A DNA stretch of 61,346 nt from Candidatus Jorgensenbacteria bacterium (GTDB lineage Bacteria > Patescibacteriota > Minisyncoccia > UBA6257 > GWB1-50-10). Of the stretch, positions 1-19,029 are shown piece after piece (within the stretch, counting starts at the first letter, position 1; every line of letters begins with the position of its first letter). Where the stretch lies: the NCBI GenBank assembly GCA_043807585.1, contig JAZDFV010000003.1, positions 1 to 61,346 on the forward strand, in the 5' to 3' direction. A program made the translations under genes and the position numbers. The notes below the pieces were generated by a model, which had not been told where the DNA came from, made no database searches, and worked only from the letters and a program-made list of their open reading frames with translations.

Positions 1-129
1 ACGCGATCGCGTTTTAATGTGATAAAAATATGAAAGCCCTAAGATTCTGTAGAACCAAAGGGCTTTTTGATACATTACTACTTCACCAGCACCATCCACT
101 TTGTTTCGGTGAAAGCGCCGGCTTTCAGC
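1..129. repeat. 129-bp perfect direct repeat of 9034-9162 (palindrome half, terminator, CTD 3' end)
   Basis: Base-by-base comparison with 9034-9162; first mismatch at 130/9163. Confidence 0.9.
33..66. terminator. Hairpin terminator downstream of CTD tail 1
   Basis: aaagccct...agggcttt stem followed by T-tract; identical copy at 9066-9099. Confidence 0.75.
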
Positions 130-170
130 CGATAGAAATAGATGCCGCTGGGATATTTCTGTGCGTCCCA
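78..170 (-). pseudogene. Orphan 3' fragment of T9SS type A CTD (tail 1)
   Basis: Translates WDAQKYPSGIYFYRLKAGAFTETKWMVLVK*; in-frame TGA a few codons upstream; matches C-terminus of 9111-10406. Confidence 0.9.
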
Positions 171-181
171 GGAAATCTGCA

Positions 182-373
182 TCAATGGACCCTCGGATCA
201 TCGTAGTTCTCACTCGATACAATCGAGGAAGATGCGAGGCTGGGGAGAAACTCTCTGCCTCCACCGCAGGTTGGACATATTTCTGTTCTGCCCAAACTGT
301 TCTTGTATTCCTCTCCGCGGCAGGTGGGGCAATCTCCCGGTCTCAGGAGAAAATCGCGCGCTATTTCAGACAT
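182..373 (-). CDS. 63-aa Cys-rich peptide with two CPTCxG motifs (zinc-finger-like, Z1)
   Basis: ORF with AAGGTG-like RBS and upstream sigma70-like promoter; positional and motif counterpart at 11097-11294. Confidence 0.65.
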   Translation of the reverse strand: MSEIARDFLLRPGDCPTCRGEEYKNSLGRTEICPTCGGGREFLPSLASSSIVSSENYDDPRVH

Positions 374-455
374 ATCATCACCTTATTGATTGTTTGAGTC
401 GTAAAAAGTCAATCTTAAACCTTCTGAAAAGAAGAATACGCCGCTTCTAATGCTT

Positions 456-491
456 GTCAAATTCCACGGGCCTTAGCCCGTGGAATTTGAC
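456..491. repeat. Perfect 16-bp-arm hairpin (ccacgggc-ctta-gcccgtgg, IS200/IS605/REP-like) whose arms carry TTGAC boxes
   Basis: gtcaaattccacgggc / gcccgtggaatttgac read directly. Confidence 0.75.
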
Positions 492-560
492 TTAACCACC
501 GAAACTAAGTAATGTTGCTATAGTAATTTCTCAGGCATCACAATTATAGGAGAAACGCGT

Positions 561-686
561 ATGGAAAAACAAACTAGTGGTTGTCCGGAAAGAATTGACG
601 GAAACTCCATTGATTACCAGGCAGGAGAGCCGCAAGAAAGGGCGGGAGATCCCGATATCACGAATGTTGATTGTGAAAATTTCTAG
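561..686 (+). CDS. 41-aa acidic peptide MEKQTSGCPERIDGNSIDYQAGEPQERAGDPDITNVDCENF (IDY peptide 1)
   Basis: Below ORF-track cutoff; AGGAG RBS, TTGACT-17-TAATGT promoter, terminator behind it; resembles 11612-11752. Confidence 0.7.
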   Translation: MEKQTSGCPERIDGNSIDYQAGEPQERAGDPDITNVDCENF

Positions 687-730
687 TTTCGCACAATTCG
701 GGTGTGCTATGGTCACGCCCGTGCAATATT

Positions 731-768
731 AAACCCGTAACGCATGTCAATGACCACGTTACGGGTTT
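731..768. terminator. Terminator between convergent peptide and rSAM genes
   Basis: aaacccgtaacg...cgttacgggttt plus T-tract. Confidence 0.8.
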
Positions 769-791
769 TTTTGTCTCCCTTAAAATGACGT

Positions 792-1883
792 TCAGATTCC
801 TTCATTTGCTTTCAACTTCTCCTCAAGGATATTGAAGACCGCCTTGCGAGAGCCACAGTAAAAATATTTATCACCCATACTGCCATCTGCCGATAAATTC
901 CGGTAATCCGTACAGCCACCATGGCATATGGAAAACCAGTGGCAACCCAAACAACCAGTTGGGGGTTTCCTCACGGACAACAAAAATTGTCGGTAATTCT
1001 CACCTTGCAATATGTCGATAAGCCGTTCGGAAAGAATGTTGCCAAGAACGTCGGCTTCACCATTTCTGCTATGACATGGCCTCACATTTCCACTAGGGTA
1101 AATATCTAAGAACTGCTCGCATAGGCCGGAGTAGATACAAGCGGACGGATTGCCACCAAGCATGCCACGCATCGGGTCAATGAACTGTCTTATTTCGACT
1201 GTCGGATCATCTTCTTCAAGCCAGATGAGAAGTATCTTTTCCAGAAAAGTGGAGAATGCGGGATCACTGACTGAAAAGTCGCATACATTTCCCTCATTAT
1301 CCATTTCAAAAGCAGGATTAAACGCCATCTTTTTTACTCCAACATCCTTCAGAAAGCGATAAATCTCTTCAGGAAAATTAGCGCTGTGGGAAGTGACAAC
1401 AGTGATTGTACCGAAATTCAATTCCTCTTCCCGACAATATCGTATACCACGCATAACCTGCGGAAATGATCCCTGTCCACCGACAGCTTTCCTATAATAA
1501 TCATGGATTCCTTCCGGGCCATCAATACTAATACCAACCCGAAAATTGTTCTCCTTAAAAAACCTCGCCCATTTCTTATCAATTAGAACTCCGTTGGTCT
1601 GGACGCCGTTTATAATGTGGGTATTTTCTTTTTTGTATCTCCCTTGAAATTTTAGGGCGGTGCCAAAAAAGTCCATACCTGCCAGTAGCGGCTCGCCGCC
1701 ATGCCAAAGGAAATTACAGGAATCACTATTTATTTCAAGAATCTGCTCTGTTAATTTCTCTAACACTGACAGCGGCATTATACTATCGGATTTCACATTC
1801 TGATCCATGTATCTGTAGAAACAATAGGCGCAACGCAAATCACAGGCGATGTCAGCGCATTTGATTATAGGAAATACTTTCAT
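792..1883 (-). CDS. Radical SAM/SPASM enzyme, anaerobic sulfatase maturase-like (family includes peptide cyclophane maturases)
   Basis: CDLRCAYC, FLWHGGEPLL, QTNG, ISIDGP and SPASM Cys clusters; start MKVF at 1883 with AAGGAG RBS. Confidence 0.9.
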   Translation of the reverse strand: MKVFPIIKCADIACDLRCAYCFYRYMDQNVKSDSIMPLSVLEKLTEQILEINSDSCNFLWHGGEPLLAGMDFFGTALKFQGRYKKENTHIINGVQTNGVLIDKKWARFFKENNFRVGISIDGPEGIHDYYRKAVGGQGSFPQVMRGIRYCREEELNFGTITVVTSHSANFPEEIYRFLKDVGVKKMAFNPAFEMDNEGNVCDFSVSDPAFSTFLEKILLIWLEEDDPTVEIRQFIDPMRGMLGGNPSACIYSGLCEQFLDIYPSGNVRPCHSRNGEADVLGNILSERLIDILQGENYRQFLLSVRKPPTGCLGCHWFSICHGGCTDYRNLSADGSMGDKYFYCGSRKAVFNILEEKLKANEGI

Positions 1884-1965
1884 GACCGTGCTCTCCTTTT
1901 TTGGGGTTGGTAAAAAACTTGCTTTACTGTAAAACAAGAGCTCTTTCACGTCAATACCGAGGTAA

Positions 1966-2277
1966 TGTGCAAGGACATTTGGCACCATGCGAGATATGCT
2001 CGGCACATGGCAATCAACATAGCATCGTCCACTACCTAATTGACCTCGGCAAGCCTGCCTAGAACGGCATCGTGGAACGCTCCCACCACTCCGAATCAGG
2101 AGTCCTTCTACGACCGGAACGTCTTCGCCTCGCTCCCCAAGTTGCGCCGGAAGCTGCGGGTGTGGAATACTCGGTACAACAACCTTGTGCACTGCGGGCT
2201 GAACGGTCGGAGCCCGAATCAATATCTTACCAAATATACCCCGTCACCGACGGTGCCAAATGTCCGTGCCTAAAACA
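1966..2277 (+). mobile_element. Internally deleted IS481-like element with frameshifted integrase-core C-terminus
   Basis: NGIVERSHHS/(D)QESFY...WNTRYNN...GLNGRSP; 18-bp inverted repeats with 1 mismatch at 1969-1986 and 2252-2269; TGT...ACA ends. Confidence 0.7.
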
Positions 2278-3261
2278 TTTCCTGTTTACCAAAATATTGA
2301 GAAAACTATGAACAAATTTCAGAAAATCCTTATCCACCCCTCTATGATTAAAGTGATAGAAGGCAACCACCGGGTACAGTTCCCATACCAATACTTTCAT
2401 TAAATCGTCGTAATTATCAAACTTCACATTAGGGCGCTTTAGGAGAACATCGGTCGTCGGTTCGTAGGCTCTAAAGACTCCAGAACAGAAATAACCAAAA
2501 GGAGCGCAGGATTCGGTTATTATTTCCTGTAAGAAATTTTTAGGTTCGCGGTCTTTTGATATAAAACGTGGCAGAGCCAATTTATTATCTCGTAAGAACC
2601 GAGACAAGATACGTTGTATAGGATTACCATCAACGAATGTATGAGCGGCCTCATGCGCAAGCACACTGACGCCACTGCCGACGTTCCAATCATTGAGTTT
2701 AAACACGGGGACTTCAAGAGTTATATCGTCTTTTCCAAGATTAGCGCCGCCCGAAACAGACCGTTTTATCGAGGGAGACGCTATAAGATGCACCTTCATC
2801 AATTTTGACGATTTGCCTCCCAAGAAATGCTCTATGCCCGCGAACATGTTTCTAACATTATCTTTGCGCAACTCCCCGTCTATTTTTCGTTGCCAATTCT
2901 TGATCGCAAGTTGCTCCCAAGTCTTCTCAAATCTTGGTGTAAATATGTGGAATGCCTCCTTTACTATTTGTAAATCATCTCCGTCTAAGAATTCGGTGAT
3001 TGCCTTCCACTTCCTTCCCTCGGTGGGAATAAAAAATGGCATTCCGAGATAAATGGATTTCCCATTCCTGTAGGAAAAACCGCGTTGTTGCATTACTGCC
3101 TTAAACCGGCGCAAAGATTTTTTCTCTCCGTTACTTAGCGGTCCGGTTAACGCCTGGCATGCCTCATTGTAATCAAGACGACAAGAAAAATGCCATTCCG
3201 ACAAGTTGGAAATGAAGAAGAAGAGATTCTCTGTTTTTGAAATGACAAATCGGAATTTCAT
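2227..3261 (-). CDS. Hypothetical HExxH-motif protein (metallopeptidase or peptide-tailoring enzyme)
   Basis: 344-aa ORF with LAHEAAHT; lies between precursor and rSAM; last ~16 aa derive from the IS relic. Confidence 0.7.
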   Translation of the reverse strand: MKFRFVISKTENLFFFISNLSEWHFSCRLDYNEACQALTGPLSNGEKKSLRRFKAVMQQRGFSYRNGKSIYLGMPFFIPTEGRKWKAITEFLDGDDLQIVKEAFHIFTPRFEKTWEQLAIKNWQRKIDGELRKDNVRNMFAGIEHFLGGKSSKLMKVHLIASPSIKRSVSGGANLGKDDITLEVPVFKLNDWNVGSGVSVLAHEAAHTFVDGNPIQRILSRFLRDNKLALPRFISKDREPKNFLQEIITESCAPFGYFCSGVFRAYEPTTDVLLKRPNVKFDNYDDLMKVLVWELYPVVAFYHFNHRGVDKDFLKFVHSFLNILVNRKCFRHGHLAPSVTGYIW

Positions 3262-3328
3262 ACTCTTTATTCTATCAAAAAAACAACCCCTTATGAATCA
3301 GGGGTTGAAAGCAAATCTTCTCTCGTGG

Positions 3329-3493
3329 TTAGTCGACCGCTTTGTCGTGGTCGCCAGTGGAATGGTCGTTGTAGCTTGGTCCGTCGCCGTGGCAAGATAA
3401 CCTTTTCTGGTTAATCTCGGCCCTCACGCGACTGATGATTTTGCTACCGATACCGACCTTCCGCATCGAGTTGCTACTGGAGGTTTGTTCCAT
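3329..3493 (-). CDS. 54-aa putative RiPP precursor, core SCHGDGPSYNDHSTGDHDKAVD
   Basis: Promoter, AAAGGGAG RBS and downstream hairpin (3283-3307); first gene of the operon with HExxH and rSAM. Confidence 0.75.
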   Translation of the reverse strand: MEQTSSSNSMRKVGIGSKIISRVRAEINQKRLSCHGDGPSYNDHSTGDHDKAVD

Positions 3494-3551
3494 GATCGTA
3501 GCTCCCTTTAAGGAAGTGATTGAAAACAGTGAACTAAAACGGACTAAAACT

Positions 3552-3580
3552 AATATACTCTGCGACATTACAAAGGTCAA
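3552..3580 (-). promoter_or_regulatory. Sigma70 promoter TTGACC-17-TATATT for precursor operon
   Basis: Read from reverse complement; lies just past the CTD tail 2 terminator. Confidence 0.7.
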
Positions 3581-3623
3581 CTCCTTAGTTAGGACGCCAA
3601 AAACTCGACAGTTATACAACTCA

Positions 3624-3658: not shown

Positions 3659-3880
3659 TTACTTGAGCAGAATCATCTTCCTCGTTGCCACGAAGCCGTT
3701 GGCTTCGAAACGGTAGAGATAGACGCCGCTGGGATACTTCTCTGCGTTCCAGACGATCCGGTGGACACCCGCTTCCTTCTCTTCCGCCACGAGTGTTGTG
3801 AGTTCCTGTCCGAGAAGGTTCAGCACGGTGAGTTTCACCGTTGAACGCTTCGGAAGCGCGAACTCAATCGTCGTCGTGGG
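3659..3880 (-). pseudogene. Orphan, nearly complete T9SS CTD fragment (tail 2)
   Basis: Translates PTTTIEFALPKRS...SGVYLYRFEANGFVATRKMILLK*; no start or propeller domain; closest to the C-terminus of 13337-14632. Confidence 0.9.
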
Positions 3881-3959
3881 ATAAATCGCGCCGTCTCACT
3901 CCCTTATATTGGACATATCACCGAAATGGGATTATTTTCAATACAACAAGATTTTAATT

Positions 3960-4490
3960 ATGGAGCTCAAGGAGAGGAATTCGCCTGTTATAAAAGAACG
4001 TTTTTTGCAATTTATCGAGACCTTGCGAGGCAAAATTGTTTTCGCATTTATTTGTGGCAGTGTAGCTAAAAATAGAACCGATGTTGGGAGCGACATAGAC
4101 GTTTTTATATGTGTAAAAGTTCTTGGCGCAGATTTTAAAACGAGATTTAGAAAATGGTATGAGAGAGTTCACCGAGATTTAAAATTTAAACCGGACAACG
4201 TGTTTCCTGGAGAAATCATGACACTGCAAAAACTTGACGCGAATCTGAGGAAGGCACAAAAGAGCACTCCGAACAAAAACATTAAGGATAGAGGTGTACA
4301 TGATGGCGTTGTATGGGCGGGAATGTTGTGTTCAAAAACTTTAGGATTCGTAGGCAATAGAAACGTATTTTTATTGAGAAAAACACTCGCGAAAAAGATT
4401 CTTATCGGGTGGAAGAAAGATTTGATGCAAAAATTTAAAGCGATGAGCTCCGACTCATTTCTCAAGGAAATAGTAAAGTACGAAAAATAA
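3960..4490 (+). CDS. Polymerase-beta-type nucleotidyltransferase domain protein
   Basis: GSVA...SDIDV motif; likely start MELK at 3960. Confidence 0.8.
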   Translation: MELKERNSPVIKERFLQFIETLRGKIVFAFICGSVAKNRTDVGSDIDVFICVKVLGADFKTRFRKWYERVHRDLKFKPDNVFPGEIMTLQKLDANLRKAQKSTPNKNIKDRGVHDGVVWAGMLCSKTLGFVGNRNVFLLRKTLAKKILIGWKKDLMQKFKAMSSDSFLKEIVKYEK

Positions 4491-4497
4491 TAATAGC

Positions 4498-5718
4498 ATG
4501 GTTGGAAACCCAACAATCAAAGAAAAAACGCAAGAGCTCTCTAGTTTATTAGAACTAAAAAGAGAGGATATTATAGAGGTGCTTTTGGAATATGAAAGTT
4601 ATACCACCGCCATTGACGAATTAGAACGCTCACTGAAATGTCTCCACAATATTGATTCAGAGCTCGAATATTTGACATATGGAAAGGTCGATACCATTAG
4701 CGCCTTCTTTCCGTTAAATTTACCTTTGTATTCTACTATATTGTTTGGCGTGGTCCCCGGTTTTATGGCCAACAAAATCTACATAAGGCCACCCTTATTA
4801 ATGCGGGGCGTTCTGCGAAAAATTCACTCACTTCTACATCTAAAAAATGTTTTACCCGACATGAAAATTATTGAGTTGGAGAGGCACCTTTTCCTTGACG
4901 GTTATGCCTCGATTTCCGATGTAATACTTTTCACAGGCAGATACGAAAACGCAAAAGCTGTCGAGGAAAGTTGTATGGCGCCACTCTTCATTTTTAATGG
5001 TGCTGGGATTAATCCTGTTGTGATAACAAAATCTGCCGACATAGAATTAGCCACCCAGAAAACTATGGAGATGAGACTGTTCAATAGCGGCCAAGACTGT
5101 GCTGGACCCGATGCTATCCTAGTTGATCAACGCGTGCTATCAGAATTTATGGGAACCCTACTCAAGAAACTCGCGACTGTGAAAATAGGAAGTTATTTAG
5201 ATAAAAAGGTTCAGGTAGGCAGATTAATAGATAGCAAACACGTTTTATTCATCGGCAAAATTTTAAGCGGATTGAGGGAGAAAATAATATACGGAGGTGC
5301 CGTCAACTACAAAGATTCAATTGTGTACCCGACTGTCATATTGGATACGTTAGAAGATGGAAGTTTAAACTATCAAGAGTTTTTTGCGCCCGTTTTTTAC
5401 GTTCTGCCGTTTACAAACATGGGCAAGCTCGATTCTTATTTTCTTGCCGAAGAATATGTTGATAATGCAATGTACGTTTCCGTATTCGGAGGATCGCCAG
5501 AATATACATCACACATCAAGGGTTCGGTAATATTGAAGGATAAGATAATAAACGATGTAGAAGAAGGCAATAAGCCATATGGAGGCTACGGGGAAAGGGC
5601 GAACTTTGTTGCTTCCAATGGTAAAATGACCCACAGCCCGATTCTAATTTCAAGAACGCTTTGCAATCATCTAAAGTCCTTGCCGCTTAATAAAACCGCA
5701 GTATCAGAACGTTCCTAA
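4498..5718 (+). CDS. Aldehyde dehydrogenase family protein
   Basis: FNSGQDC catalytic Cys, FTG, EFFAPV, PYGGYG motifs. Confidence 0.85.
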   Translation: MVGNPTIKEKTQELSSLLELKREDIIEVLLEYESYTTAIDELERSLKCLHNIDSELEYLTYGKVDTISAFFPLNLPLYSTILFGVVPGFMANKIYIRPPLLMRGVLRKIHSLLHLKNVLPDMKIIELERHLFLDGYASISDVILFTGRYENAKAVEESCMAPLFIFNGAGINPVVITKSADIELATQKTMEMRLFNSGQDCAGPDAILVDQRVLSEFMGTLLKKLATVKIGSYLDKKVQVGRLIDSKHVLFIGKILSGLREKIIYGGAVNYKDSIVYPTVILDTLEDGSLNYQEFFAPVFYVLPFTNMGKLDSYFLAEEYVDNAMYVSVFGGSPEYTSHIKGSVILKDKIINDVEEGNKPYGGYGERANFVASNGKMTHSPILISRTLCNHLKSLPLNKTAVSERS

Positions 5719-5733
5719 ATCGAGACCAAACTT

Positions 5734-6675
5734 ATGCGCCAGCACAAAACAGTCGATAACTCCATTAGCTCGGACGACCTATCTGGGATCAGAAAGCGAT
5801 ACCCGTGGATAAAGATGTTCTCGGGGGACATAGAGTGTTATATACCGCCGGGATATTACGATAAGTTATTAAAAGAATACACCTTCGGTGGCAAGTCAGA
5901 TTTGGATATCTTCCGATTATATTTAAAATCTCTAACACTGAAGCCGGGTTGCCGAGTGTTAGAATTGGGTGGCGGTACGGGGAGAGCGACGAAGGTATTT
6001 CTTGACGCAATAAAGAATTTTGGAGCACTAGACGTAATCGATTTAAGCCCTGGAATGGTGTCCTATTTATCGAGGAGGTTCAGTAGGAATAGAAACGTGT
6101 TGGTTAGGACAGCCGATAATGTAGATTATTTGAACAAAACAAAAAGAAAGTATGATTTGGTGTATAGTCTTTGGAGTTTTTCCCACTCGGCACATCAACA
6201 CATGGCTGACGAGGGGTTAAGAAGGGGGTCAAAATATACTGAAAATTCTCTGGAGGGTTTCATAAAGGGAAACATTAATCCACGCGGAAATTTCTTCGTC
6301 ATGCATTTTGACAGTCTGAGTGAGGAACAGAGAATTCTGATGAAGCAGTGGGCGAAAGATTTTCACATTTTTAAGAAAAGGTCTAGACAGTCACCATCCA
6401 AGCGGTTGTTGGATAAAATCTTGAAAAATCTTAATGGCGTTTATATTCACGGACTCACCACTAAATACTATGCAGGTGACCAAATACTATATAATTCGCT
6501 GGACGAATTATTGGAAATTTTCCTTAATTTCCATATGGAAACGGAATACAACAGAAGCCGTTATCTAAAACGTGCGTTACGCGACATATCGAATGACGCG
6601 CATAAATATTGTCAACCAAACGGCACATACCTCATACGCCCGGGCTGTTTCGTTTATTCGTTCCAGAGATTGTAG
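5734..6675 (+). CDS. Class I SAM-dependent methyltransferase
   Basis: VLELGGGTG, IDLSPGM, YDLVY motifs. Confidence 0.85.
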   Translation: MRQHKTVDNSISSDDLSGIRKRYPWIKMFSGDIECYIPPGYYDKLLKEYTFGGKSDLDIFRLYLKSLTLKPGCRVLELGGGTGRATKVFLDAIKNFGALDVIDLSPGMVSYLSRRFSRNRNVLVRTADNVDYLNKTKRKYDLVYSLWSFSHSAHQHMADEGLRRGSKYTENSLEGFIKGNINPRGNFFVMHFDSLSEEQRILMKQWAKDFHIFKKRSRQSPSKRLLDKILKNLNGVYIHGLTTKYYAGDQILYNSLDELLEIFLNFHMETEYNRSRYLKRALRDISNDAHKYCQPNGTYLIRPGCFVYSFQRL

Positions 6676-6735
6676 AACCTGATGAGATTGTAAAAAGGCA
6701 ACCTTTTGTAGAACATCTTTTTGCATATCAACAAG

Positions 6736-6763
6736 AAAGCCACGGACTCATGCCCGTGGCTTT
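6736..6763. terminator. Bidirectional terminator between methyltransferase and argS
   Basis: aaagccacgg...ccgtggcttt. Confidence 0.75.
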
Positions 6764-6770
6764 TTGAGTG

Positions 6771-11089: not shown

Positions 11090-11096
11090 TTCGCAA

Positions 11097-11294
11097 TCAA
11101 GACGGTGCCGATTCAGAAATTGCGCCCGTCGCCTCGTTCTTAAAGAGATCGCGGACGGGATCGGGCATTCTGCCAACACCATCACATCCACCACATCGGC
11201 CCCCTTTTTCTCTCTCTTCTCCTGTTCCGTTACAGGCCGGGCAGACAATCCATCCTTCCGGCATAAATGTGCAACATCCAAATTCTCCTAGCAT
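11097..11294 (-). CDS. 65-aa Cys-rich peptide with DnaJ-type CxxCxGxG motifs (Z2)
   Basis: CPACNGTG...CGGCDGVG; AGGAGG RBS. Confidence 0.75.
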   Translation of the reverse strand: MLGEFGCCTFMPEGWIVCPACNGTGEEREKGGRCGGCDGVGRMPDPVRDLFKNEATGAISESAPS

Positions 11295-11537
11295 GGGAAC
11301 CTCCTCGTGAAATTGGAAAGGTTGTTTCTATTTACTCTGCTTACATTACACCACACTAGACATAAGAAAATCAAATTTTTATAAGATGGGGTTTTGTGGC
11401 CCGGCAAACCCAACTATTGGTTTGCAATTCCTGACAAGATCAAGCGTGTCCGCAATATCACTAACCGTGGCCGCATCAACGGCGTCACCAGCGCCAGTCG
11501 CTGGAGAAGGAGCAAATCCAAAGCTCCAGCTAACTAC

Positions 11538-11565
11538 TTGACGAGTTGTTACTATTATGTATAAT
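11538..11565 (+). promoter_or_regulatory. Sigma70 promoter TTGACG-16-TATAAT for the peptide/M16 operon
   Basis: Near-consensus boxes read directly. Confidence 0.75.
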
Positions 11566-11611
11566 GCGAGTAGTATATTTCATAAAACTTTTTGAACGAA
11601 AGGAGGAATGT

Positions 11612-11752
11612 GTGCTGAAAGCAAAACCCGATCAAGAACAAATGCCCGAAACGCCGAATAGGGACCCATCAACGGATGCGATTGATTACCCGCAATCACC
11701 GGAAGGTGGAAGGGAAGAGGAATCTTCCGCGATGGAGAGTGAGTTGTTCTAA
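11612..11752 (+). CDS. 46-aa acidic peptide (IDY peptide 2) MLKAKPDQEQMPETPNRDPSTDAIDYPQSPEGGREEESSAMESELF
   Basis: AAGGAGG RBS with GTG start at 5-nt spacing; shares PE..D.IDY...E(N/L)F with 561-686. Confidence 0.7.
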   Translation: MLKAKPDQEQMPETPNRDPSTDAIDYPQSPEGGREEESSAMESELF

Positions 11753-11830
11753 CCATTCTCAGCGCAATTAAAAGTGTTTTCCGTTCTTGGAGTAACCAAC
11801 TAAATTTCAAAAGGAAAGGAGGTGAAAGCT

Positions 11831-11914
11831 ATGTATCCGAACCAACGTTATAGATCGGACGATCCGCCCGAAGGAACCGTGATGGATGACGACGGCGAAC
11901 CTATCCATGGTTAA
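11831..11914 (+). CDS. 27-aa peptide MYPNQRYRSDDPPEGTVMDDDGEPIHG
   Basis: Ideal AAGGAGGTG RBS; followed by hairpin ~11932-11968. Confidence 0.75.
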   Translation: MYPNQRYRSDDPPEGTVMDDDGEPIHG

Positions 11915-12007
11915 CACTCCCCTCATCATTCCGAACACGATTTATTGTTATTACAGTAAGTCGTGTTTTATTTTGTTATTTCTTAAAATAAGCTATTATT
12001 TTGATTG

Positions 12008-13282
12008 ATGAAGCATTATTCCGGGTCAAAACTTGAGAACGGTCTCACCGTCATTACAAGCGAGGATAAAAACTCTGAAGTCGTTCTTCTCATGGCTGGG
12101 TTTAAGGCTGGGTCACGTTATGAGAAAAAAAATGAGCGCGGCTATGCACATCTTTTAGAACACGTACTCCTCAAGGGTACCAAAAAACGTCCGTCCATTA
12201 CTAAAGTTGGCGAGATAACGGATCAAGCCGGAGCTGATCTGGGAGCCTATACCGACATGGAAAGTGTAGTGGTGCGTCTCCATGCCGCAAAGGAATGGCG
12301 GGAGGGCATGTTTGAACTATTGCTAGATGTTATTGGAAATCCTCTTTTCTCAACGGAAACGCTCAAAAACGAAAAGAATATTGTTATCCAAGAATTACAC
12401 AAATTCCGTGACAATCGAGGACCGCGCCTGTGGTCAGAATCACTAAAACGTCTGTTTGGATCTCACCCGCTCGCACAAAATCCCATCGGGGAAGAGGAGG
12501 TGATTTGTCATGTAACAAGCGCGAAACTCAAAAGCTACTATGAACGATTCTTAACTCCCGATAGGGGCGTAATAATAGCTACCGGGAACGTGAGTCACGC
12601 GGAGATTGTAAAATGGGTATCACAATACGGAAAACCAAAATGGATGCAATCTCGGGGAGCATCCACTCCACTCATATCAGTACACCCGAAATCTGGCACA
12701 GAGTTTATCAAAGAGCCCGGGAACCAAACACAGTTGTTCTTCAATTTTGTTTGTCCCGCGCTTACGCTCAATAAATTGCTGACGTTAGAACTAATTGCAA
12801 ACGCATTTGGATATGGGAATGTCCCAATACTAAAACAGGATTTACGCCACAAAAGAGGGTTGGTGTATGCAATCAGCTCTTACGTGCAAAGATTTCAGGA
12901 TGTAGTTCTATTCTATGTTTCCACCGCGAGTACTGAACCGAAGGAGGTCGTTGAAGCGGTAGTAAAAATATTTGAAAACTTTTTGGACACGTTTCCAGAA
13001 AGCCGATTTGAAGAATTCAAGAAAAAATACAAGAGCGTTTTTCTTCGCAAGCTGAGTGATCCTTTTTACGAAGCCAATCTATTGAAAGATTCTTGGATGT
13101 TTTACGGAAGGTTAGTAACGCCAGAAGAAATTTCCCAAAACATCGAATCGCTGACGTACCATGATGTGGTTAATATGAGAAATCGATATCTTATTAATGA
13201 GAAGCTTTTTATTACGATGTTCGGAGAACGGAATCCTGAAATTAAATTATCGGGACAAAGACAATTTACTTCTCATTCCTAA
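12008..13282 (+). CDS. M16 family zinc peptidase
   Basis: HLLEH inverted zincin motif; R..RGLVY C-domain motif. Confidence 0.9.
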   Translation: MKHYSGSKLENGLTVITSEDKNSEVVLLMAGFKAGSRYEKKNERGYAHLLEHVLLKGTKKRPSITKVGEITDQAGADLGAYTDMESVVVRLHAAKEWREGMFELLLDVIGNPLFSTETLKNEKNIVIQELHKFRDNRGPRLWSESLKRLFGSHPLAQNPIGEEEVICHVTSAKLKSYYERFLTPDRGVIIATGNVSHAEIVKWVSQYGKPKWMQSRGASTPLISVHPKSGTEFIKEPGNQTQLFFNFVCPALTLNKLLTLELIANAFGYGNVPILKQDLRHKRGLVYAISSYVQRFQDVVLFYVSTASTEPKEVVEAVVKIFENFLDTFPESRFEEFKKKYKSVFLRKLSDPFYEANLLKDSWMFYGRLVTPEEISQNIESLTYHDVVNMRNRYLINEKLFITMFGERNPEIKLSGQRQFTSHS

Positions 13283-13289
13283 AAAAATA

Positions 13290-13336: not shown

Positions 13337-14632
13337 CTACTTCAGCAACAGCATCTTTCTCGTTGCCACGAAGCCGTTCGCTTCGAGGCGATGGAAATAG
13401 ACACCGCTGGGTAAATCTCGAGCGTTCCAGACGATTCTGTGAATTCCGGGCTCCATCTCTCCATCAACGAGCGTTTCAACATTCTGTCCGAGGGCGTTGT
13501 AAATCGCGAGATTCACATTCGCCCGCTTCGGAATAGAGAACTCTATCGTCGTACTCGGATTGAAGGGGTTCGGGTAGTTCTGGAGCAGACGGTAATCAGT
13601 AATTAGTAACTGGTAATTGTTGTCCACGGCGGTTGGCGTATTCATCGCGCCGTCCACGCGGTAGATGGCATTCCATGTGCCGACGAGAAGGGATTTTCCC
13701 TTCACCGCGAGCGCACCTACCCAACTCACCGAATCGGCGACGATCTGTGTCCATGCTTTCCCATCATACTTGAGGACACCGCTCTTCGCGCCGCCAACAC
13801 CTCCCGCATCGTCGAATCCCACGAACACAAAGTCGGGTTTCACTGCGAGAATCTTCCGCGCCCACCTGTGGGACGCGCCGATTTCCACAATTCTTGTCCA
13901 CGACACACCGTCGTCCACGGAACGATAGAGGCCGTTCTCAGTGCCGGCGTAAAGGGTGCCGTTTGAATCCGCCGCCACAGACCACACATGGAGATCTCCG
14001 AGACCCCCATTTGATTGGTGCCACGTTTTCCCGTCATCGGCGGACCGGAGCACGCCAAGCCCGATGGTGTCGGCGGTACCCGCGAAGAGAGAGCCAGTTT
14101 TTGGGTTCACCGCGAGCTCCTCGACGTTGAAGTAGTGGTCGCTACGATAGAATACCGGTTTCCAAGACACACCACCATCTTCGGAATGGCCGATATATTT
14201 ACCTGTGCCGGCGAGAATGGAACCATCCTCCTTTACCAGAAAACATCCTGCTCCTTTTTCCCACACAAAAGTCCAACTCACGCCGTTATCACCTGACCGG
14301 TAAAGCCCTCCGCCGTTTCCAAAAAGAAGCGCGTTAGTTTTCTGGTCGCGCATGACCGCAAAACCGAAGTTAGAGAGAAAATCTTTTTTGAAGATTCGCT
14401 CCCATGTCTTCCCGTCGTCCGTAGAGCGGAGCAACGCCTTGAAGGACATTGCGGCAAAAATATCGCCATTTGTGTCTATCCAGATTGAAAGAACATTGTC
14501 TTTCAAACTGTCCGGCAGAAGATTCTTGCTTACAGTGATATCCGTCGCCACCGATTGCGCCCATACCTTTTGAGGCATGGACAGCACACTCAACATCAGG
14601 GCGAGCGTGAAAGCCCATGCTCTCGTTTTCAT
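13337..14632 (-). CDS. Secreted BNR beta-propeller with T9SS type A CTD (B2)
   Basis: Paralog of B1; QNYPNPFNP; heptamer-repeat-derived linker NYQLLITDY. Confidence 0.9.
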   Translation of the reverse strand: MKTRAWAFTLALMLSVLSMPQKVWAQSVATDITVSKNLLPDSLKDNVLSIWIDTNGDIFAAMSFKALLRSTDDGKTWERIFKKDFLSNFGFAVMRDQKTNALLFGNGGGLYRSGDNGVSWTFVWEKGAGCFLVKEDGSILAGTGKYIGHSEDGGVSWKPVFYRSDHYFNVEELAVNPKTGSLFAGTADTIGLGVLRSADDGKTWHQSNGGLGDLHVWSVAADSNGTLYAGTENGLYRSVDDGVSWTRIVEIGASHRWARKILAVKPDFVFVGFDDAGGVGGAKSGVLKYDGKAWTQIVADSVSWVGALAVKGKSLLVGTWNAIYRVDGAMNTPTAVDNNYQLLITDYRLLQNYPNPFNPSTTIEFSIPKRANVNLAIYNALGQNVETLVDGEMEPGIHRIVWNARDLPSGVYFHRLEANGFVATRKMLLLK

Positions 14633-14782: not shown

Positions 14783-15199
14783 ATGAAAAGAGCAAGAGCT
14801 TTATTCGTTTCGCTTGCGATTCTCTCGCTTATTCTCCCCGCGGGCGGTTCCGCGGCGTTCCAGGGACCGGCAAACTTTCAGGGGAAATACGAGGCAAGCC
14901 AGGACGCCATTCAATTGAATTGGCAGAATGTTGAGAACTACAGTCAACAGACGTTGACAAAGACCGTCAGTCCTTCAGGTAAACCTGGTGTTTTGGAGCC
15001 AGGACTTGATACCACTCCCGGCAACAAATCCTTCTCCGACACAAACCAAGGGCAGGAGTTCACCCGCGGCTCGTATCAGTACCAACTTTCCACGATCAAG
15101 AGCGGCGAGACACAGACATCCGATCTTTCTGTCCCCATCATGCCGGAGGACTCGAACATCGTGATTGTGAAGACGACGACCGGGGGTTTGATGGCATAA
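14783..15199 (+). CDS. 138-aa secreted single-domain protein (A2)
   Basis: Close paralog of A1 with the same GGLMA* end. Confidence 0.8.
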   Translation: MKRARALFVSLAILSLILPAGGSAAFQGPANFQGKYEASQDAIQLNWQNVENYSQQTLTKTVSPSGKPGVLEPGLDTTPGNKSFSDTNQGQEFTRGSYQYQLSTIKSGETQTSDLSVPIMPEDSNIVIVKTTTGGLMA

Positions 15200-15204: not shown

Positions 15205-15300
15205 AAAAGGGCTGATGCATATCGCATCAGCCCTTTTGATAAATCTTCACTCCGACTAAAGTGCCGGAGGCTACTTCACAAGCGTCATTTTCTTGCGAAT
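15205..15300. pseudogene. Terminator 15205-15237 plus orphan CTD tail 8 (IRKKMTLVK*, 15271-15300, minus strand)
   Basis: Translation of reverse complement; parallels 10984-11089. Confidence 0.75.
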
Positions 15301-15332
15301 ATTTCTATCGAGGTTCAACCTTGATAGGAACT

Positions 15333-16331
15333 TTACTGCACAGAACTGCCTTTGAATTTTATAAGAGATCTTTGGGTGTTAATTTCACATCTGCCGCCAA
15401 TAGGAAAAGTTATCATTGGGCTGGTATGACCGAAATCAAGATTAGAAACGACGGGTATGTCAAAATTTGATACTAGAATCTTCAATAATTCCCCCTCTTC
15501 TTTAGAGGCAAGACCGCTTCTAGAGCCGAATCTGCCAATGACTAATCCACGTAGTTTCCGGAAATCGGAAAGTTGAACCAGCTGGGTTAACATTCTTTCA
15601 ATCATTCCCTTATTCATACAGGGATCTTCTTCAATAAAAAGGATTTTATTTTTAAAACTGGGGCAATACGGCGTTTTTAATAGAAGCAGAAATGTTGATA
15701 AATTTCCTCCGATAATTTCTCCTTCTGCGCTACCAGCTTTGATAAACCGCCAGCCACCATTTTTCATCAGTTGTCTATGCTTGCGGGGCGTTTGCCACCA
15801 TTCGTCTTCCGCCCATGTTTTCGACGGTTCGACTATAATATCTGATTCGCCATCCATCAGTACTTTTTTGAAATATTTAAGCTCGAAGTTGAACGGAGGC
15901 TCAGTTTGTGCCATGGTAGCAAAACATGGCCCCGAAAATGTTATTAAACCGGTTTTTGTAAAAATTGCGTTTTGTAAAGCCGTAACATCACTGAAACCAA
16001 TAAATATTTTGGGGTTATTTTTTATGAGTTTGAAATCAATAAAAGGCAAAAGTTGGTTCGAGGTGTACCCCCCTATAACAGCCATTACCGCCTTAATACT
16101 CTTAGACTTAAACATGTGATGAAAATCTGTAAGGCGCGGTTTTATGCTATCTGTGGAAAGTTCGCTGAATCTGAATATATTCTTTCCGTATTGAACTTTA
16201 AAACCAAGAGATTCCAAATTCTTTTTAGCTAATTTGAGATTTCCCTTTTTAATCAGTGAAGCTGAAGATGCCGGGGCTACCACGCCAATTAAATCTCCAC
16301 ATTTTAATCTTGGCGGTTTAATAATTTCCAT
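15333..16331 (-). CDS. S66 family peptidase (LD-carboxypeptidase / MccF-like)
   Basis: IGVVAPAS, IGGY, FIGFSDVT, GGNL, LFIEE, DFGHT motifs. Confidence 0.9.
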   Translation of the reverse strand: MEIIKPPRLKCGDLIGVVAPASSASLIKKGNLKLAKKNLESLGFKVQYGKNIFRFSELSTDSIKPRLTDFHHMFKSKSIKAVMAVIGGYTSNQLLPFIDFKLIKNNPKIFIGFSDVTALQNAIFTKTGLITFSGPCFATMAQTEPPFNFELKYFKKVLMDGESDIIVEPSKTWAEDEWWQTPRKHRQLMKNGGWRFIKAGSAEGEIIGGNLSTFLLLLKTPYCPSFKNKILFIEEDPCMNKGMIERMLTQLVQLSDFRKLRGLVIGRFGSRSGLASKEEGELLKILVSNFDIPVVSNLDFGHTSPMITFPIGGRCEINTQRSLIKFKGSSVQ

Positions 16332-16397
16332 AACTTATATTATAAATAAAAAAAGAGTGCGAGAGAAGTCTTAAAATCCCGCACTCTCTATTAAGCC

Positions 16398-16427
16398 TTA
16401 CGGCTCACAAAGATGCCCCTTCAACAT
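16398..16427 (-). CDS. 9-aa micro-ORF MLKGHLCEP, candidate RiPP precursor
   Basis: AAGGAGGTG RBS 7 nt upstream; ATG overlaps the stop of the frame-corrected rSAM (ATGTTGA); hairpin plus U-tract follows (~16353-16388). Confidence 0.65.
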   Translation of the reverse strand: MLKGHLCEP

Positions 16428-17591
16428 AATTCATCACCTCCTTCCGGTAGTAGTTCGGAGAGTGTTCTGTACTTTGGCGATTCCCCATCATTTCTTATCA
16501 ACCCTCTGTAGATTTCCTTCAGATTGCTGGAAAGAATGGGTAGAATCGTTTCTTCCACAACTGGCATTATGAAACATGAGATTGGATCGGCATTGTTTAC
16601 CCCCCCCTGTCCATCTTAAGGCATCCGCTCGGCAACCTCCCCCACACAACATGAGATATTTGCAATTCCTACATCCTTCAAGGTCACTAACCTTTAGAGT
16701 GAAGAAGTTATTCTTCATGGCCGACCCCAAGACGTCGCTAAGGCTGGTACCTTCCGTAATTCTTCCCAGAACAAGTTGTATGGGAGAGCAGAGGGTTATC
16801 GTTCCATCGGGCTTAACGGTAATACTGCCCAAGAAATAGTCGCAGGGGTGAAGAGAAGTATCGCTTTGGGCCGCCGCATCACCGAGCTGGATGTTCTCAA
16901 GCTGACTCTTGTATATTCTAAACAATGCCAGTTCTGTCTTTTGCAATTCCGCATGAGCATACCTATTAATTATCAAACGGGAAGCTATCTCAACGGCGGT
17001 TTTGAAATCGAGCAAAATGTCGATCTTGTGAGGTCTAATTGGTAAATCGACTCTCCAAGCATCGACACCCAACTCAACAACCTTTCGCTGGAGATCAACA
17101 ACCTCTCCCATATTGTGTCTGTGAAGCACGGTATTCACGCTGATCCGACAATCCTTTCTTTTTTCCCTTATCCAGCGAATAACGTTGATAATGTTGTGCC
17201 AATCACTGGGTGGCCTTGCTATGTTATGACCATCAAAGCCGTCTAACGAGGTTATTATTTCTTTGACTGCTGGCGATTCGATTACGCTTTCCATCACCTT
17301 CCCGTCTGTCTTCCATAGGTTAGTCATGAGGGATGCTTTTGCATGATGCGAGCCAAGTCTCTCCATGATTTCCAAAATCCCCGGGAAAGAAAGAGGTTCT
17401 CCTCCAGAAACAACAAAACTCCCTATGCCCATCTCTACTGCCTGATCAATTATTCCCAACCACTCTTTGCTGGTCATCTCAGCTTTCTCATGACACATAC
17501 TGCTCTTCTCGCGAACGACGTAACAGTAAGAGCAATTAAGATTGCACCTATTTGTCAAATCAAGGTGTATCCTTTTTATACGATGTTCCAT
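16421..17591 (-). CDS. Radical SAM/SPASM enzyme (PqqE/NirJ-like), frameshifted at a G8 tract (16600-16607)
   Basis: CNLNCSYC, SGGEP, SPASM cysteines; removing one G restores ...NNADPISC...EGGDELC*. Confidence 0.85.
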
Positions 17592-17654
17592 TTTTATCCT
17601 CCATTCTCATCCGCTTATTTGGTTTTTATTCGAAGGTAATTCGATACTAAATAT

Positions 17655-17682
17655 ATTATACTCAATAATAGAAAGGTGTCAA
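17655..17682 (-). promoter_or_regulatory. Consensus promoter TTGACA-16-TATAAT for the rSAM cassette
   Basis: Read from reverse complement, immediately beyond the B3 terminator at 17691-17722. Confidence 0.85.
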
Positions 17683-17733
17683 CAAATAAAAAAGCCCGAT
17701 ACAATCAATCGTATCGGGCTTTCTTGTTACCAC

Positions 17734-19029
17734 TTATTTCACCAGCACCATCCGTTTCGTTTCAGTAAAAGCACCGGCCTTCAGCTGATAGAAGTATATG
17801 CCGCTGGGCAGATTAGAACCGTCAAACGTGGCGGTGTATACTCCCGCTCTTTCTGTCTTGTCCACCAGCACCGACACCTCCACACCAAGTATGTTGTACA
17901 CCGCGAGTTTCACATACGTCATACGTGACACTTGATACTCAATACTGGTAGAGGGATTGAACGGGTTCGGGAAATTCTGGGACAGCATGAAAGCGGTTGG
18001 AACGGAAGGATAGTCGTCCACGGCGGTTGGCGTATCAATCGCGCCGTCCACGCGGTAAATCGTGTTCCAAGTTCCGACAAGGAGCGATTTACCCTTGACC
18101 GCAAGCGACTTCACTATGTAAACGGTATCGGCGACGATCTGTGTCCACACCTTCCCGTCATACTTGAGGACCCCGCTCTTTGCTGCGCCCGCTTTCCAGT
18201 CGAATCCCACGAATACAAGATTCGGCTTTACCGCGAGAATCTTCCGCGCCCACCTGTGGGACGTGCCGATTTCCGTAATTCTTGTCCACGACACGCCGTC
18301 ATTCACCGAACGATAGAGGCCGTTCTCGGTGCCAGCGTAGATGGTGCCGTTCGAGTCAGACGCTACAGACCACACATGAAGATCTCCGAGACCCCCATTC
18401 GACTGTTGCCACGTCTTCCCGTCATCGGTTGAACGGAGTATGCCGAGGCCAATGGTGTCCGCAGTGCCTGCGAAGATAGAGCCGGTCCTAGGATTCATCG
18501 CGAGTTCCTCAACGTTGAAGTAGGGGCGGGGGTCGTAGAAGATTTCCCTCCACGTAGCACCGCCGTCGTCCGATTGTGTAATACGGTAACTCATGCCGCC
18601 GAGGATCGAGCCGTCCGGTTTTGCGAGGAAGCAACCCCCCCCGCCAGCGCTCCACACAAAAGTCCAGCTTTTACCCTCATCAGTTGATCGGAAAATACCG
18701 CTACCGGAACCATAGAGAATGGCGTTCGTTTTCTTGTCCCGTATAGCACCGAAGCCAAAGTTTGAGAGAAAGTCCTTTTTGAAGATTCGCTCCCATGTTT
18801 TCCCGTCGTCGGTCGAGCGGAGCAGGCCTCTGTAAGACATTGCCGCGAGGATGTCGCCGTTCTTATCAATCCAGATGGAGTACACGTTCTCGCTCACGCT
18901 GTCGGGCAGAATTTTGTTTACCGTAATATCTGTCGCCACCGATTGTGTCCATACCTTTTGCGGCATGGACAGCACACTCAACGTCAGGGCGAGTGTGAGA
19001 GCCCATGCTTTCGTTTTCATTTCTGTCAC
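17734..19029 (-). CDS. Secreted BNR beta-propeller with T9SS type A CTD (B3)
   Basis: Paralog of B1/B2; QNFPNPFNP; start may be MKTK at 19020. Confidence 0.9.
   Translation of the reverse strand: MTEMKTKAWALTLALTLSVLSMPQKVWTQSVATDITVNKILPDSVSENVYSIWIDKNGDILAAMSYRGLLRSTDDGKTWERIFKKDFLSNFGFGAIRDKKTNAILYGSGSGIFRSTDEGKSWTFVWSAGGGGCFLAKPDGSILGGMSYRITQSDDGGATWREIFYDPRPYFNVEELAMNPRTGSIFAGTADTIGLGILRSTDDGKTWQQSNGGLGDLHVWSVASDSNGTIYAGTENGLYRSVNDGVSWTRITEIGTSHRWARKILAVKPNLVFVGFDWKAGAAKSGVLKYDGKVWTQIVADTVYIVKSLAVKGKSLLVGTWNTIYRVDGAIDTPTAVDDYPSVPTAFMLSQNFPNPFNPSTSIEYQVSRMTYVKLAVYNILGVEVSVLVDKTERAGVYTATFDGSNLPSGIYFYQLKAGAFTETKRMVLVK

Follow-up and report, generated by a model that had tools for sequence, protein, structure and literature searches.

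Orphan gene tails and low-GC cargo behind a triplicated surface-protein gene in a Candidatus Jorgensenbacteria contig: possible growth by C-terminal displacement

We analyzed a 61,346-bp stretch of DNA from Candidatus Jorgensenbacteria (the window), which is one entire contig and whose first 19 kb carries three copies of a gene for a surface protein with a BNR propeller and a Por_Secre_tail C-terminal domain (CTD). We tentatively regard these 19 kb as a hypervariable accretion locus at the 3′ end of this gene in a genome of the candidate phyla radiation (CPR). Judging from sequence comparison, the locus is possibly a recombination hotspot that would grow by C-terminal displacement and by cassette exchange anchored in the conserved tail. 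In each of three units (A to C), an intact gene with its CTD and a non-native terminator is followed by variable DNA and then by the last ~21–24 nt of a CTD with the native terminator, a palindrome termed H1. The variable DNA is 2.3–2.4 kb of low-GC cargo in two units and a 34-nt palindrome in the third, and more orphan tails and low-GC blocks lie past the three units.

The original prediction had placed here nine sites with a (V/L)K-stop ending plus a hairpin, three of them in intact genes and six in orphan 3′ fragments, and motif counts and minus-strand translation recovered all nine. The sequence CTACTTCAC occurs five times, on the plus strand only, against 0.2 expected, and none of 100 shuffles reached five. 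The degenerate motif YTAYTTSAS has 12 copies, again on the plus strand only (5.3 expected), and nine of the 12 are the noted tail sites. Minus-strand translation gave three open reading frames (ORFs) of 431 aa with stops at 9111, 13337, and 17734; they end in MVLVK-stop or MLLLK-stop, and each encodes a BNR/Sortilin-like protein with Por_Secre_tail. In gene orientation, a stable hairpin comes next at all tail sites (DNA folds, z −2.5 to −7.9). The intact genes and orphans are as follows.

9111..10406, minus strand: B1, intact 431-aa BNR/Sortilin-like protein with Por_Secre_tail CTD (translation, Pfam)
13337..14632, minus strand: B2, intact 431-aa paralog (translation)
17734..19029, minus strand: B3, intact 431-aa paralog (translation), CTD of a different clade
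78..179, minus strand: orphan tail 1, stop at 78, last ~33 codons of the CTD (~100 nt); 78–129 identical to the B1 tail, 130–179 diverged
3659..3882, minus strand: orphan whole CTD (tail 2), stop at 3659, 74 codons plus stop (222 nt), frame intact; 3660–3882 shares 73% nt with the B2 tail
8809..8869, minus strand: stub of ~17–21 nt, VK-stop at 8849, with a B3-type terminator hairpin (8809–8840)
8946..9003, minus strand: stub of ~12–21 nt, VK-stop at 8983, with an H1 terminator (8946–8975)
10985..11075, minus strand: 22-nt stub, VK-stop at 11054; H1 at 10985–11019, inner 6-nt stub at 11028–11033, mini hairpin at 11034–11051
15206..15294, minus strand: 24-nt stub, VK-stop at 15271; H1 at 15206–15236, inner stub at 15245–15250, mini hairpin at 15251–15268

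Segment 15206–15294 is homologous to 10985–11075. Since the stubs at 11054 and 15271 are homologous copies within a duplicated 2-kb module, the six orphan fragments exist as described but count as five independent events only. The short stubs are marginal one by one in local alignment, and they are convincing only with their position beside hairpins. The pairing of orphans with intact alleles held as well: tail 1 pairs with B1 (1–129 and 9034–9162, 100% identical), tail 2 with B2, and the tail 3 terminator with B3 (8797–8864 against the B3 terminator plus tail, 82%). Among themselves, tail copies are only 55–82% identical. B1 scored 32.9 bits against PF18962 (cut-off 27) and 32.3 bits against TIGR04183 (cut-off 23), and its nearest non-CPR homologs are ~700-aa proteins of Ignavibacteria/Bacteroidota with ~30% identity. 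As an observation in its own right, Por_Secre_tail domains (type A sorting, type IX secretion system or T9SS) are present in CPR bacteria. Neither a T9SS nor an outer membrane is known from CPR bacteria, and the domain may have another role there than T9SS sorting.

Self-comparison confirmed the array, and it also revealed what the original prediction had overlooked, a tandem segmental duplication of the BNR gene with the 5′ end of its neighbor. A 2-kb module occurs three times, at 9093–11075, 13314–15292, and 17716–19569, with 73–76% identity (76% between the first two, modules A and B). Every module comprises a BNR gene, the divergent promoter region, and the first 138 codons of the neighboring 1009-aa fn3 gene, and the full-length gene is the source of the truncated copies (N138).

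10562..10978, plus strand: N138_A, truncated 138-aa copy of the N-terminus of the 1009-aa gene, marking the tandem-duplication junction
14783..15199, plus strand: N138_B, second truncated copy of the same N-terminus
19123..22152, plus strand: 1009-aa fn3/Flg_new_2 surface protein, divergent neighbor of B3; the conserved core begins here (synteny with the relative locus L001)

The duplication junction lies directly after the H1 terminator. As shown by this arrangement, a unit consisting of the 5′ 138 codons of the fn3 gene, the divergent BNR gene, and its native terminator H1 was triplicated in tandem, and the three intact genes are not independent targets because they are members of this one triplication. 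Two H1 copies abut the tandem-duplication junction with N138, and therefore the stub beside each must be where the BNR copy of that unit natively ended. It follows that insertion separated the gene body from its last ~22 nt and brought in the present CTD, terminator, and cargo. In the B1 unit, we take the stub at 8983 with its H1 to be the native 3′ end, now displaced.

The alignment of B1, B2, and B3 is a patchwork in which the nearest pair changes repeatedly along the gene: B2 and B3 at the N-terminus and in columns 630–800, B1 and B3 in columns 271–500, and B1 and B2 over most of the CTD. This mosaic points to frequent gene conversion or recombination in the surface protein, and a block of 80–95% identity just upstream of the CTD could be the recombination anchor. 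The B3 body is ~75% aa identical to B1. Its CTD shows 35–57% nt identity to B1/B2 in alignment columns 1081–1230 and no more than 59% to B1/B2, and it stands closest to an orphan from a Jorgensenbacteria metagenome-assembled genome (MAG; locus L172, 77% nt), so that the B3 tail belongs to a foreign CTD clade. Import of the B3 tail along with low-GC cargo from a low-GC donor was also considered and rejected, as composition does not support it.

The orphan CTDs might alternatively form a silent reservoir of gene-conversion donors that diversifies the surface proteins (pilS, vls, or MgPar type), the cargo being incidental. The strong mosaicism of B1/B2/B3 fits this reading, as do CTD alleles common to several genomes and the identity of tail 78 to B1 across 52 coding nt plus terminator. 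The long orphans fit it too: their frames are intact, with a ratio of nonsynonymous to synonymous divergence (dN/dS) of 0.13–0.37 and a synonymous divergence (dS) of 0.4–2 against other tails, and they probably diverged as parts of working genes, not as old neutral debris. However, recent orphans would also show low dN/dS, four of the six orphans are only 12–24 nt long and useless as donors, the stored part is the conserved sorting domain only and not the variable propeller, and kilobases of unrelated expressed genes separate the copies. We consider a donor reservoir very unlikely.

Comparison with related Parcubacteria for cargo swaps showed the same layout with different cargo, both at two loci of a Candidatus Brennerbacteria MAG, which holds the closest relative of the repeated BNR gene (65% aa), and in other Patescibacteria. 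Only radical SAM enzymes and a 63-aa ORF are cargo common to different genomes. Contig 3 of the Brennerbacteria MAG (L090/L001) has a complete array with a cargo GC of 0.35–0.44, and contig 5 (L085) has the second locus.

L090/L001, first part: fn3 gene, intact 432-aa gene, AAA_18/NDK/glycosyltransferase/NUDIX and other genes, orphan CTD, nucleotidyltransferase and radical SAM genes
L090/L001, second part: 26-codon orphan, ParE pair, orphan CTD, hydrolase, 165-aa relic, 79/70-aa gene pair, GAPDH and core
L085: intact gene, 345-aa ORF, two dCTP-deaminase genes, prolyl-tRNA synthetase (ProRS), short stub with H1, radical SAM gene, 299-aa ORF, orphan CTD, IS3, core

The CTD of the intact gene in L090 is an outlier among the tails of that genome. 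L004 represents the empty site, where the intact gene is directly followed by the 79/70-aa gene pair; in the occupied L090, a relic of 141 codons precedes the same pair (82% nt), 10 kb past the intact gene. In another Patescibacteria lineage (L084/L086), the CTD genes have ASH/DUF1573 bodies and the core is 81–97% identical, and the two loci differ by 10 kb of GC-0.36 cargo with an rve gene and toxin-antitoxin pairs between the intact CTD gene and orphan CTDs. L172 has an orphan CTD among toxin-antitoxin modules. Orphan-like CTD hits made up 9 of 20 in CPR loci, some of which had been chosen through orphans, against 7 of 168 in 1.22 Mb of control loci, which came from a profile search driven by the universal QNYPNPFN motif and cover genomes of the Fibrobacteres–Chlorobi–Bacteroidetes (FCB) group only, at ~30% identity. 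A metagenome contig search with the CTD-less body alignment returned generic BNR Asp-box motif matches and no close relative.

These loci bear on a second alternative, namely, that a longer tandem array of paralogous units, each with N138 and a divergent BNR gene, has decayed, that foreign insertions and deletions erased copies, and that the tail had no role in acquisition. Tandem triplication with truncated neighbor copies is demonstrated, and the tails carry the GC of the gene family (0.49–0.56), unlike the cargo (0.41–0.44). Most tails group by genome, and the window orphans are nearest to window paralogs (3659 to B2, 78 to B1, and 8849 to B3); dS between orphan 3659 and B2 (0.93) about equals that between B1 and B2 (0.88). 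The 165-aa relic at the far end of L090 is pseudogene-like, retaining body residues ~150–170 and 291–431 around an internal deletion, and cargo block 5 of the window contains a marginal BNR-promoter-like relic at 11337–11374. All of these observations suit decay. Nevertheless, 11 of 11 independent relics of the BNR family are 3′-anchored with stop and terminator kept (five in the window, four in L090, one each in L085 and L004), for which the chance under random one-sided decay is p ~0.5^11, and 10 of the 11 lie on the strand of the intact gene, the exception being an inverted orphan in L004. No 5′ or internal-only BNR relic was found in the window and relatives, the unfiltered search with a hidden Markov model of the body included, and no N138, promoter, or body relic lies beside any orphan in 1–9 kb. 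In units B and C, the stub sits right on the H1/N138 junction, with no space for an extra decayed unit. The intact frames of the long orphans, the B3 CTD from another clade, and the empty/occupied pairs in two lineages, which place the inserted DNA behind the gene body but ahead of that gene's old tail, likewise argue against decay, which we judge to be an unlikely explanation of the locus.

We next describe H1, which has the form CTTTATTAAAGGGCTGATACAxATGTATCAGCCCTTTTGCGTT; its outer arms (AACGCAAAAGGGCTGAT / ATCAGCCCTTTTGCGTT) are conserved and the variants differ in the center. Ten copies were found in 174 kb of CPR loci, against none in 1.86 Mb of non-CPR loci; nine of the ten lie 2–8 nt past a CTD stop or stub. 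The window copies lie at 3624–3656, 8946–8975, 10985–11019, and 15206–15236, and those of relatives at 4217–4250 in L003, 7350–7383 in L085, 1875–1907 in L171, and 1472–1504 and 3460–3492 in L172. In L001, L003, and L171, the intact gene has H1 behind it, and so does the far-end relic in L090. The window copies stand behind orphans only (stubs 8983, 11054, and 15271 and orphan CTD 3659), and B1, B2, and B3 end in other terminators.

9066–9099: B1 terminator hairpin, not H1; resembles a hairpin after an orphan in L086
13289–13322, minus strand: B2 terminator, unique sequence
17688–17722, minus strand: B3 terminator
1..77, minus strand: contig-start terminator hairpin (33–66) plus half a CGATCG palindrome, an exact copy of 9034–9110

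The distribution of H1 raises a third alternative, in which the last codons, the stop, and the H1 palindrome are an attC-like or Xer/IMEX-like site for site- or structure-specific recombination by an enzyme encoded elsewhere, and the blocks are true cassettes. In one version, the same site would belong to a CPR-specific cassette system in which a host or trans-acting enzyme, or hairpin-directed replication or template switching, excises circles and re-inserts them at surface-gene ends; the 9,033-bp segment bounded by the 129-nt repeat would then be such a circle or its integrated form. The conserved arms with a variable center and the confinement of H1 to CPR loci next to tails are in favor. 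So is a 35-nt stretch over the H1 copy at 3624–3656, which is identical in the Jorgensenbacteria MAG (L172) though the adjoining tails differ. Moreover, short stubs beside H1 recur in the window, L085, and L172, a pair of H1 copies flanks toxin-antitoxin modules in L172, the homology of modules A and B spans precisely tail end to next tail end, and a circular form would fit the exact 129-nt repeat that opens the contig. However, the left edges of the stubs lie 13, 14, 22–25, 28, and 225 nt from H1, which gives no fixed crossover, and longer orphans start anywhere up to 420 nt before the stop, repeat lengths overall ranging from 6 to ~420 nt. The B1-, B2-, and B3-type tail hairpins are unrelated in sequence to one another and to H1, and the H1 variants show compensatory stem changes plus a T-tract, like ordinary intrinsic terminators.

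Searches for the enzyme and its sites also spoke against such a system. In agreement with the original prediction, no recombinase was found in the window: Pfam searches on all contig ORFs of at least 150 aa and on the cargo ORFs detected neither a recombinase nor a transposase or integrase. The complete L090 array likewise yielded none, unannotated ORFs included, and the cargo ORFs of unassigned function gave no recombinase signal (Pfam E≤0.1; PHROGs). The rve genes in L085/L086 are insertion sequence (IS) transposases. On direct reading, attC cores (RYYYAAC...GTTRRRY) are absent from the boundaries, where the hairpins are perfect palindromes with T-tracts in several families, and no dif-like 28-mer was found at the tail/H1 sites. 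The earlier likening to integrons did not stand, given no IntI, no attC cores, and blocks with their own promoters and mixed orientation. Recombination at H1 by an enzyme encoded elsewhere is thus rather improbable in our estimation, and a dedicated CPR cassette system is a doubtful proposition.

Two other roles for H1 were rejected. As a DNA-uptake sequence, it has no copy in the 42-kb core, and as a phage attP, IMG/VR gave four terminator-like matches, none with a CTD. Rfam over 1–20 kb at E≤1 returned only weak terminator look-alikes. Separately, perfect or near-perfect palindromes of 34–44 nt centered on CGATCG lie at 8879–8912, 9023–9056 (truncated copy at 1–27), 22261–22304, and 52559–52602; they form three sequence families that have only the center in common. 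Two are the sole content of tiny blocks between stubs; of the remaining pair, one comes after the fn3 gene and one separates tRNA-Pro from an ABC transporter. In L001–L004, no such palindrome with arms of at least 8 nt was found.

The cargo between the tails was resolved into the following blocks.

180..3623, minus strand: cargo block 1, GC 0.44
182–373, minus strand: block 1, 63-aa Zn-ribbon ORF
792–1910, minus strand: block 1, radical SAM/SPASM enzyme, anSME/DynA-like (below cut-off)
2227–3261, minus strand: block 1, 344-aa ORF with HExxH
3329–3619, minus strand: block 1, 96-aa ORF
3883..8808, mixed strands: cargo block 2, GC 0.42
3909–4490, plus strand: block 2, nucleotidyltransferase
4498–5718, plus strand: block 2, ALDH-like protein
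5734–6675, plus strand: block 2, methyltransferase
6771–8651, minus strand: block 2, CPR-type arginyl-tRNA synthetase (ArgRS)
8879..8912: tiny block, sole content a perfect 34-nt palindrome centered on CGATCG
11076..13288: cargo block 5, GC 0.44
12005–13282, plus strand: block 5, M16 peptidase, with small ORFs besides
15295..17687, minus strand: cargo block 6, GC 0.41
15333–16331, minus strand: block 6, S66 LD-carboxypeptidase
16488–17591, minus strand: block 6, radical SAM/SPASM enzyme, the second such enzyme
17682–17655, minus strand: block 6, consensus promoter

The view of these blocks as unrelated AT-rich cassettes agrees with their composition and with their difference between relatives. 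The GC steps at the junctions are sharp (cargo 0.41–0.44 against 0.57 in the core), and GC at third codon positions is 0.35–0.49 in cargo, 0.62–0.65 in BNR genes, and 0.68–0.78 in the core. Each block had also been said to begin after a terminator with its own promoter and to run into the next tail; consensus promoters do follow several terminators, but blocks 2 and 5 hold opposite-strand genes. The junction of block 1 with tail 1 falls directly after the stop of the 63-aa ORF, with no clear homology at the joint. The island ArgRS has its best named matches in Moranbacteria and Parcubacteria (~55%), and the methyltransferase–ArgRS pair is syntenic with a 42%-GC contig, L089 (69% nt). PADLOC called no defense system and reported only generic radical SAM (viperin-like) and nucleotidyltransferase/methyltransferase similarities.

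Several side observations concern this cargo. The 63-aa ORF occurs in the window (182–373, minus strand) and in L004 (4116–4307, minus strand), with two CxxC pairs, 87% aa and 85% nt identity between the genomes, and radical SAM/SPASM genes nearby in both; the ORF may encode a small protein of zinc-ribbon type or a substrate peptide. Its fusion to tail 1 was considered and rejected, as it lies in another frame. The recurring 344/345-aa ORFs beside tails were likewise rejected as a candidate mobility gene, since they are not homologous to each other and the window copy has HExxH. In a tally covering window 1–19 kb, L085, L090, L004, and L086, aminoacyl-tRNA synthetases recur as island cargo (ArgRS in the window and ProRS at 5809–7275 in L085), together with NDK, dCTP/dCMP deaminases, Tmk, NUDIX, MazG-like proteins, minimal nucleotidyltransferases, radical SAM enzymes, and toxin-antitoxin pairs.

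An assembly artifact, in which a high-GC and a low-GC genome were joined at shared tail repeats, might also produce such an array. The source is of the MAG type, the GC steps are sharp, and the contig opens with the exact 129-nt copy of 9034–9162, a pattern that assemblers yield at a graph loop; past position 129, identity drops to ~75%. This repeat may be an assembly loop or a circular form. Since the contig starts inside it, segment 130–9033 may be an integrated block between direct repeats or a circular or polymorphic form, and tail 1 is real because 130–179 is unique and CTD-like. No other exact repeat of at least 30 nt touches a cargo/tail junction, where the tail copies have diverged as described above. 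In addition, separate assemblies and samples of relatives show this architecture as well, including independent Logan assemblies (L002 equals L001 at 99.985%, and L087/L088 equal L086), and the cargo genes themselves are of CPR type. A chimeric join is therefore highly improbable.

We return to the hotspot with C-terminal displacement, the most parsimonious of these readings though a tentative one, for which the following course can be proposed. DNA from related cells would bring in the 3′ region of a homologous gene, its terminator, and whatever lies downstream, and would recombine via conserved sequence at or just before the CTD. Tail copies may take part in a single or double crossover, or the event may be one-sided, as in homology-facilitated illegitimate recombination; the second joint would fall within the resident tail, in many instances close to the terminator hairpin. 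In this way, the gene would remain intact with a new tail, and the old tail end with its terminator would be displaced downstream as an orphan. Once two tail copies surround a block, ordinary homologous recombination could swap, duplicate, or loop out the block, and the 9,033-bp segment flanked by the 129-nt exact repeat is a possible example. A dedicated integrase would be unnecessary. Homologous exchange between tail copies would explain the tail-to-tail homology of modules A and B, stub copies with different cargo, and the homogenization of tails per genome, and the neighboring type IV pilus and ComF genes are, speculatively, compatible with DNA uptake. The original claim of integrase-less capture at a coding tail was upheld insofar as the array is real, the intact gene is kept, 3′ fragments lie downstream, and empty/occupied pairs exist, but it is mixed with tandem duplication. 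Also in favor of displacement are the polarity of the relics, the intact frames and low dN/dS of the long orphans, the mosaic paralogs, the foreign composition of the cargo, the agreement between assemblies, the lack of a recombinase and of a fixed crossover, and the precedent of rhs and T6SS arrays. In line with replacement at the current 3′ end, the B3 CTD is foreign, H1 is on orphans only in the window, and the L090 intact CTD is an outlier, whereas the B1/B2 tails are close and have family GC. At the distal joints, the block 1 edge is without clear homology, and stub edges are variable yet clustered near the hairpin.

Several points weigh against displacement. Its mechanism is deduced from comparison of loci, and no recombination event was observed directly. 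The tails match the GC of the resident family and mostly group by genome, which does not support cassettes carrying their own tail; these features equally fit relics of resident paralogs, or else they need same-lineage donors together with gene conversion. The lengths of three independent stubs nearly coincide (~21–24 nt, K-M-x-L-x-K-stop), and several joints fall within 30 nt of the hairpin, which a purely illegitimate join does not predict. As stubs 11054 and 15271 are copies with different cargo, later cargo replacement or a hotspot is required. In L086, where the CTD gene family is different, a HicAB module lies between 142-nt direct repeats (10166–10307 and 11048–11189; 91.5% identical) of the CTD 5′ half, which breaks the 3′-anchored rule, and the L004 orphan is inverted relative to its intact gene. 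Since H1 also follows an intact gene in L001/L090, the terminator argument is clean in the window only. Finally, the array runs off the contig, and a recombinase just outside is possible.

Outside the locus, bases 19–61 kb (GC 0.55–0.63) are a typical CPR/Patescibacteria core with PilM, PilB, PilT, PilC, pilins, prepilin peptidase, a ComF-like protein, LigA, GatA, PheS/T, RecG, CCA enzyme, and seven tRNAs, whereas GC switches between 0.41–0.44 and ~0.52 in bases 1–19 kb. The original assignment to Parcubacteria/CPR agrees with the Brennerbacteria best relative and the CPR-type ArgRS. The 1009-aa gene contains a 228-nt internal repeat at 20786–21236 (79–87% identical), which represents its two Flg_new_2 (InlB B-repeat-like) domains. 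After tRNA-Ala (54755–54826), a low-GC stretch (0.42–0.48) extends to 56970, with ORFs without a Pfam match and a 16/18 copy of the tRNA-Ala 3′ end at its far end (~56954–56971); 54755–56970 may be an integrase-less remnant of a tRNA-targeted island on the same contig. A 66-nt exact tandem duplication (80-nt period) lies in 43463–43608, directly after tRNA-Met, and a 54-nt tandem repeat lies at the right end (61207–61346), so that the contig terminates in a repeat at that end too.

CPR/Patescibacteria have tiny genomes with few recognized mobile elements, and their gene acquisition is poorly understood. The locus and its relatives present recurrent, polar, integrase-less stacking of foreign genes behind a surface-protein gene, marked by conserved pieces of tail and by a palindromic terminator specific to the lineage. 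Should the model of anchored recombination hold, C-terminal displacement would extend from toxin loci to general gene acquisition, and a CTD orphan plus H1 would be a signature for flexible islands in CPR metagenomes. If the hairpin is instead a true recombination site, it would define a new cassette system, an integron-like capture platform without IntI in minimal genomes.

Full-text literature searches returned nothing relevant for T9SS C-terminal domains in Patescibacteria and no paper combining "candidate phyla radiation" with Por_Secre_tail; otherwise, they gave conceptual precedents only, from rhs, contact-dependent growth inhibition (CDI), and type VI secretion system (T6SS) arrays and the Staphylococcus aureus lpl cluster. 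The original statement that no such system had been described therefore needs revision, as rhs/CDI displacement, integrase-less T6SS arrays (PMC5361080), and tandem tRNA islands are conceptual precedents. Like integrons, the locus is a linear array of unrelated genes with units bounded by palindromes of conserved arms and variable center and the newest units by a fixed point; unlike them, it has no IntI, attI, or RYYYAAC/GTTRRRY cores, and it has own promoters, mixed orientation, and terminator-like palindromes. Tandem genomic islands located at tRNA/tmRNA genes depend on an integrase of the tyrosine or serine type and on a fixed core. The window resembles them in that direct repeats of the target 3′ end flank the insert, the target is kept intact with a displaced 3′ fragment at the far end, and repeated use of the site gives arrays; it differs in its protein-coding target, its variable repeat lengths without a constant core or crossover, and the lack of an element-encoded integrase.

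The S. aureus lpl cluster consists of tandem surface-protein paralogs with recombination mosaics (Tsuru & Kobayashi 2008, PMC2568036). As in the window, the evolving unit there reaches from the 3′ part of an ORF through the intergenic region into the 5′ part of the ORF that follows; unlike in the window, no foreign cargo is described between units. For Vibrio cholerae T6SS effector-immunity arrays and rhs, homology-facilitated illegitimate recombination with a one-sided anchor was proposed, and a likeness to integrons was considered but dismissed because an integrase is missing (Kirchberger et al. 2017, PMC5361080). There, too, sequential insertion displaces older modules downstream; however, those arrays retain immunity genes under selection, whereas the window retains non-functional tail stubs and terminators and its cargo has no common function. 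C-terminal displacement and orphan toxin-immunity arrays are described for rhs/CDI loci (Jackson et al. 2009 as cited in PMC5361080; Poole et al. 2011, PMC3150448). Both there and in the window, an intact gene is followed by a same-orientation array of displaced, promoter-poor 3′ fragments without an integrase, and growth is ascribed to recombination anchored in the conserved gene part, with later homologous exchange between copies. In rhs/CDI loci, a variable toxic tip follows the conserved anchor, and the orphan is a toxin tip with its immunity gene. In the window, by contrast, what is repeated is the very 3′ end, which is conserved and consists of a sorting-type domain with its terminator; the intervening genes are unrelated and low in GC (housekeeping-like, toxin-antitoxin, and like those for ribosomally synthesized and post-translationally modified peptides), and the host is a CPR bacterium.

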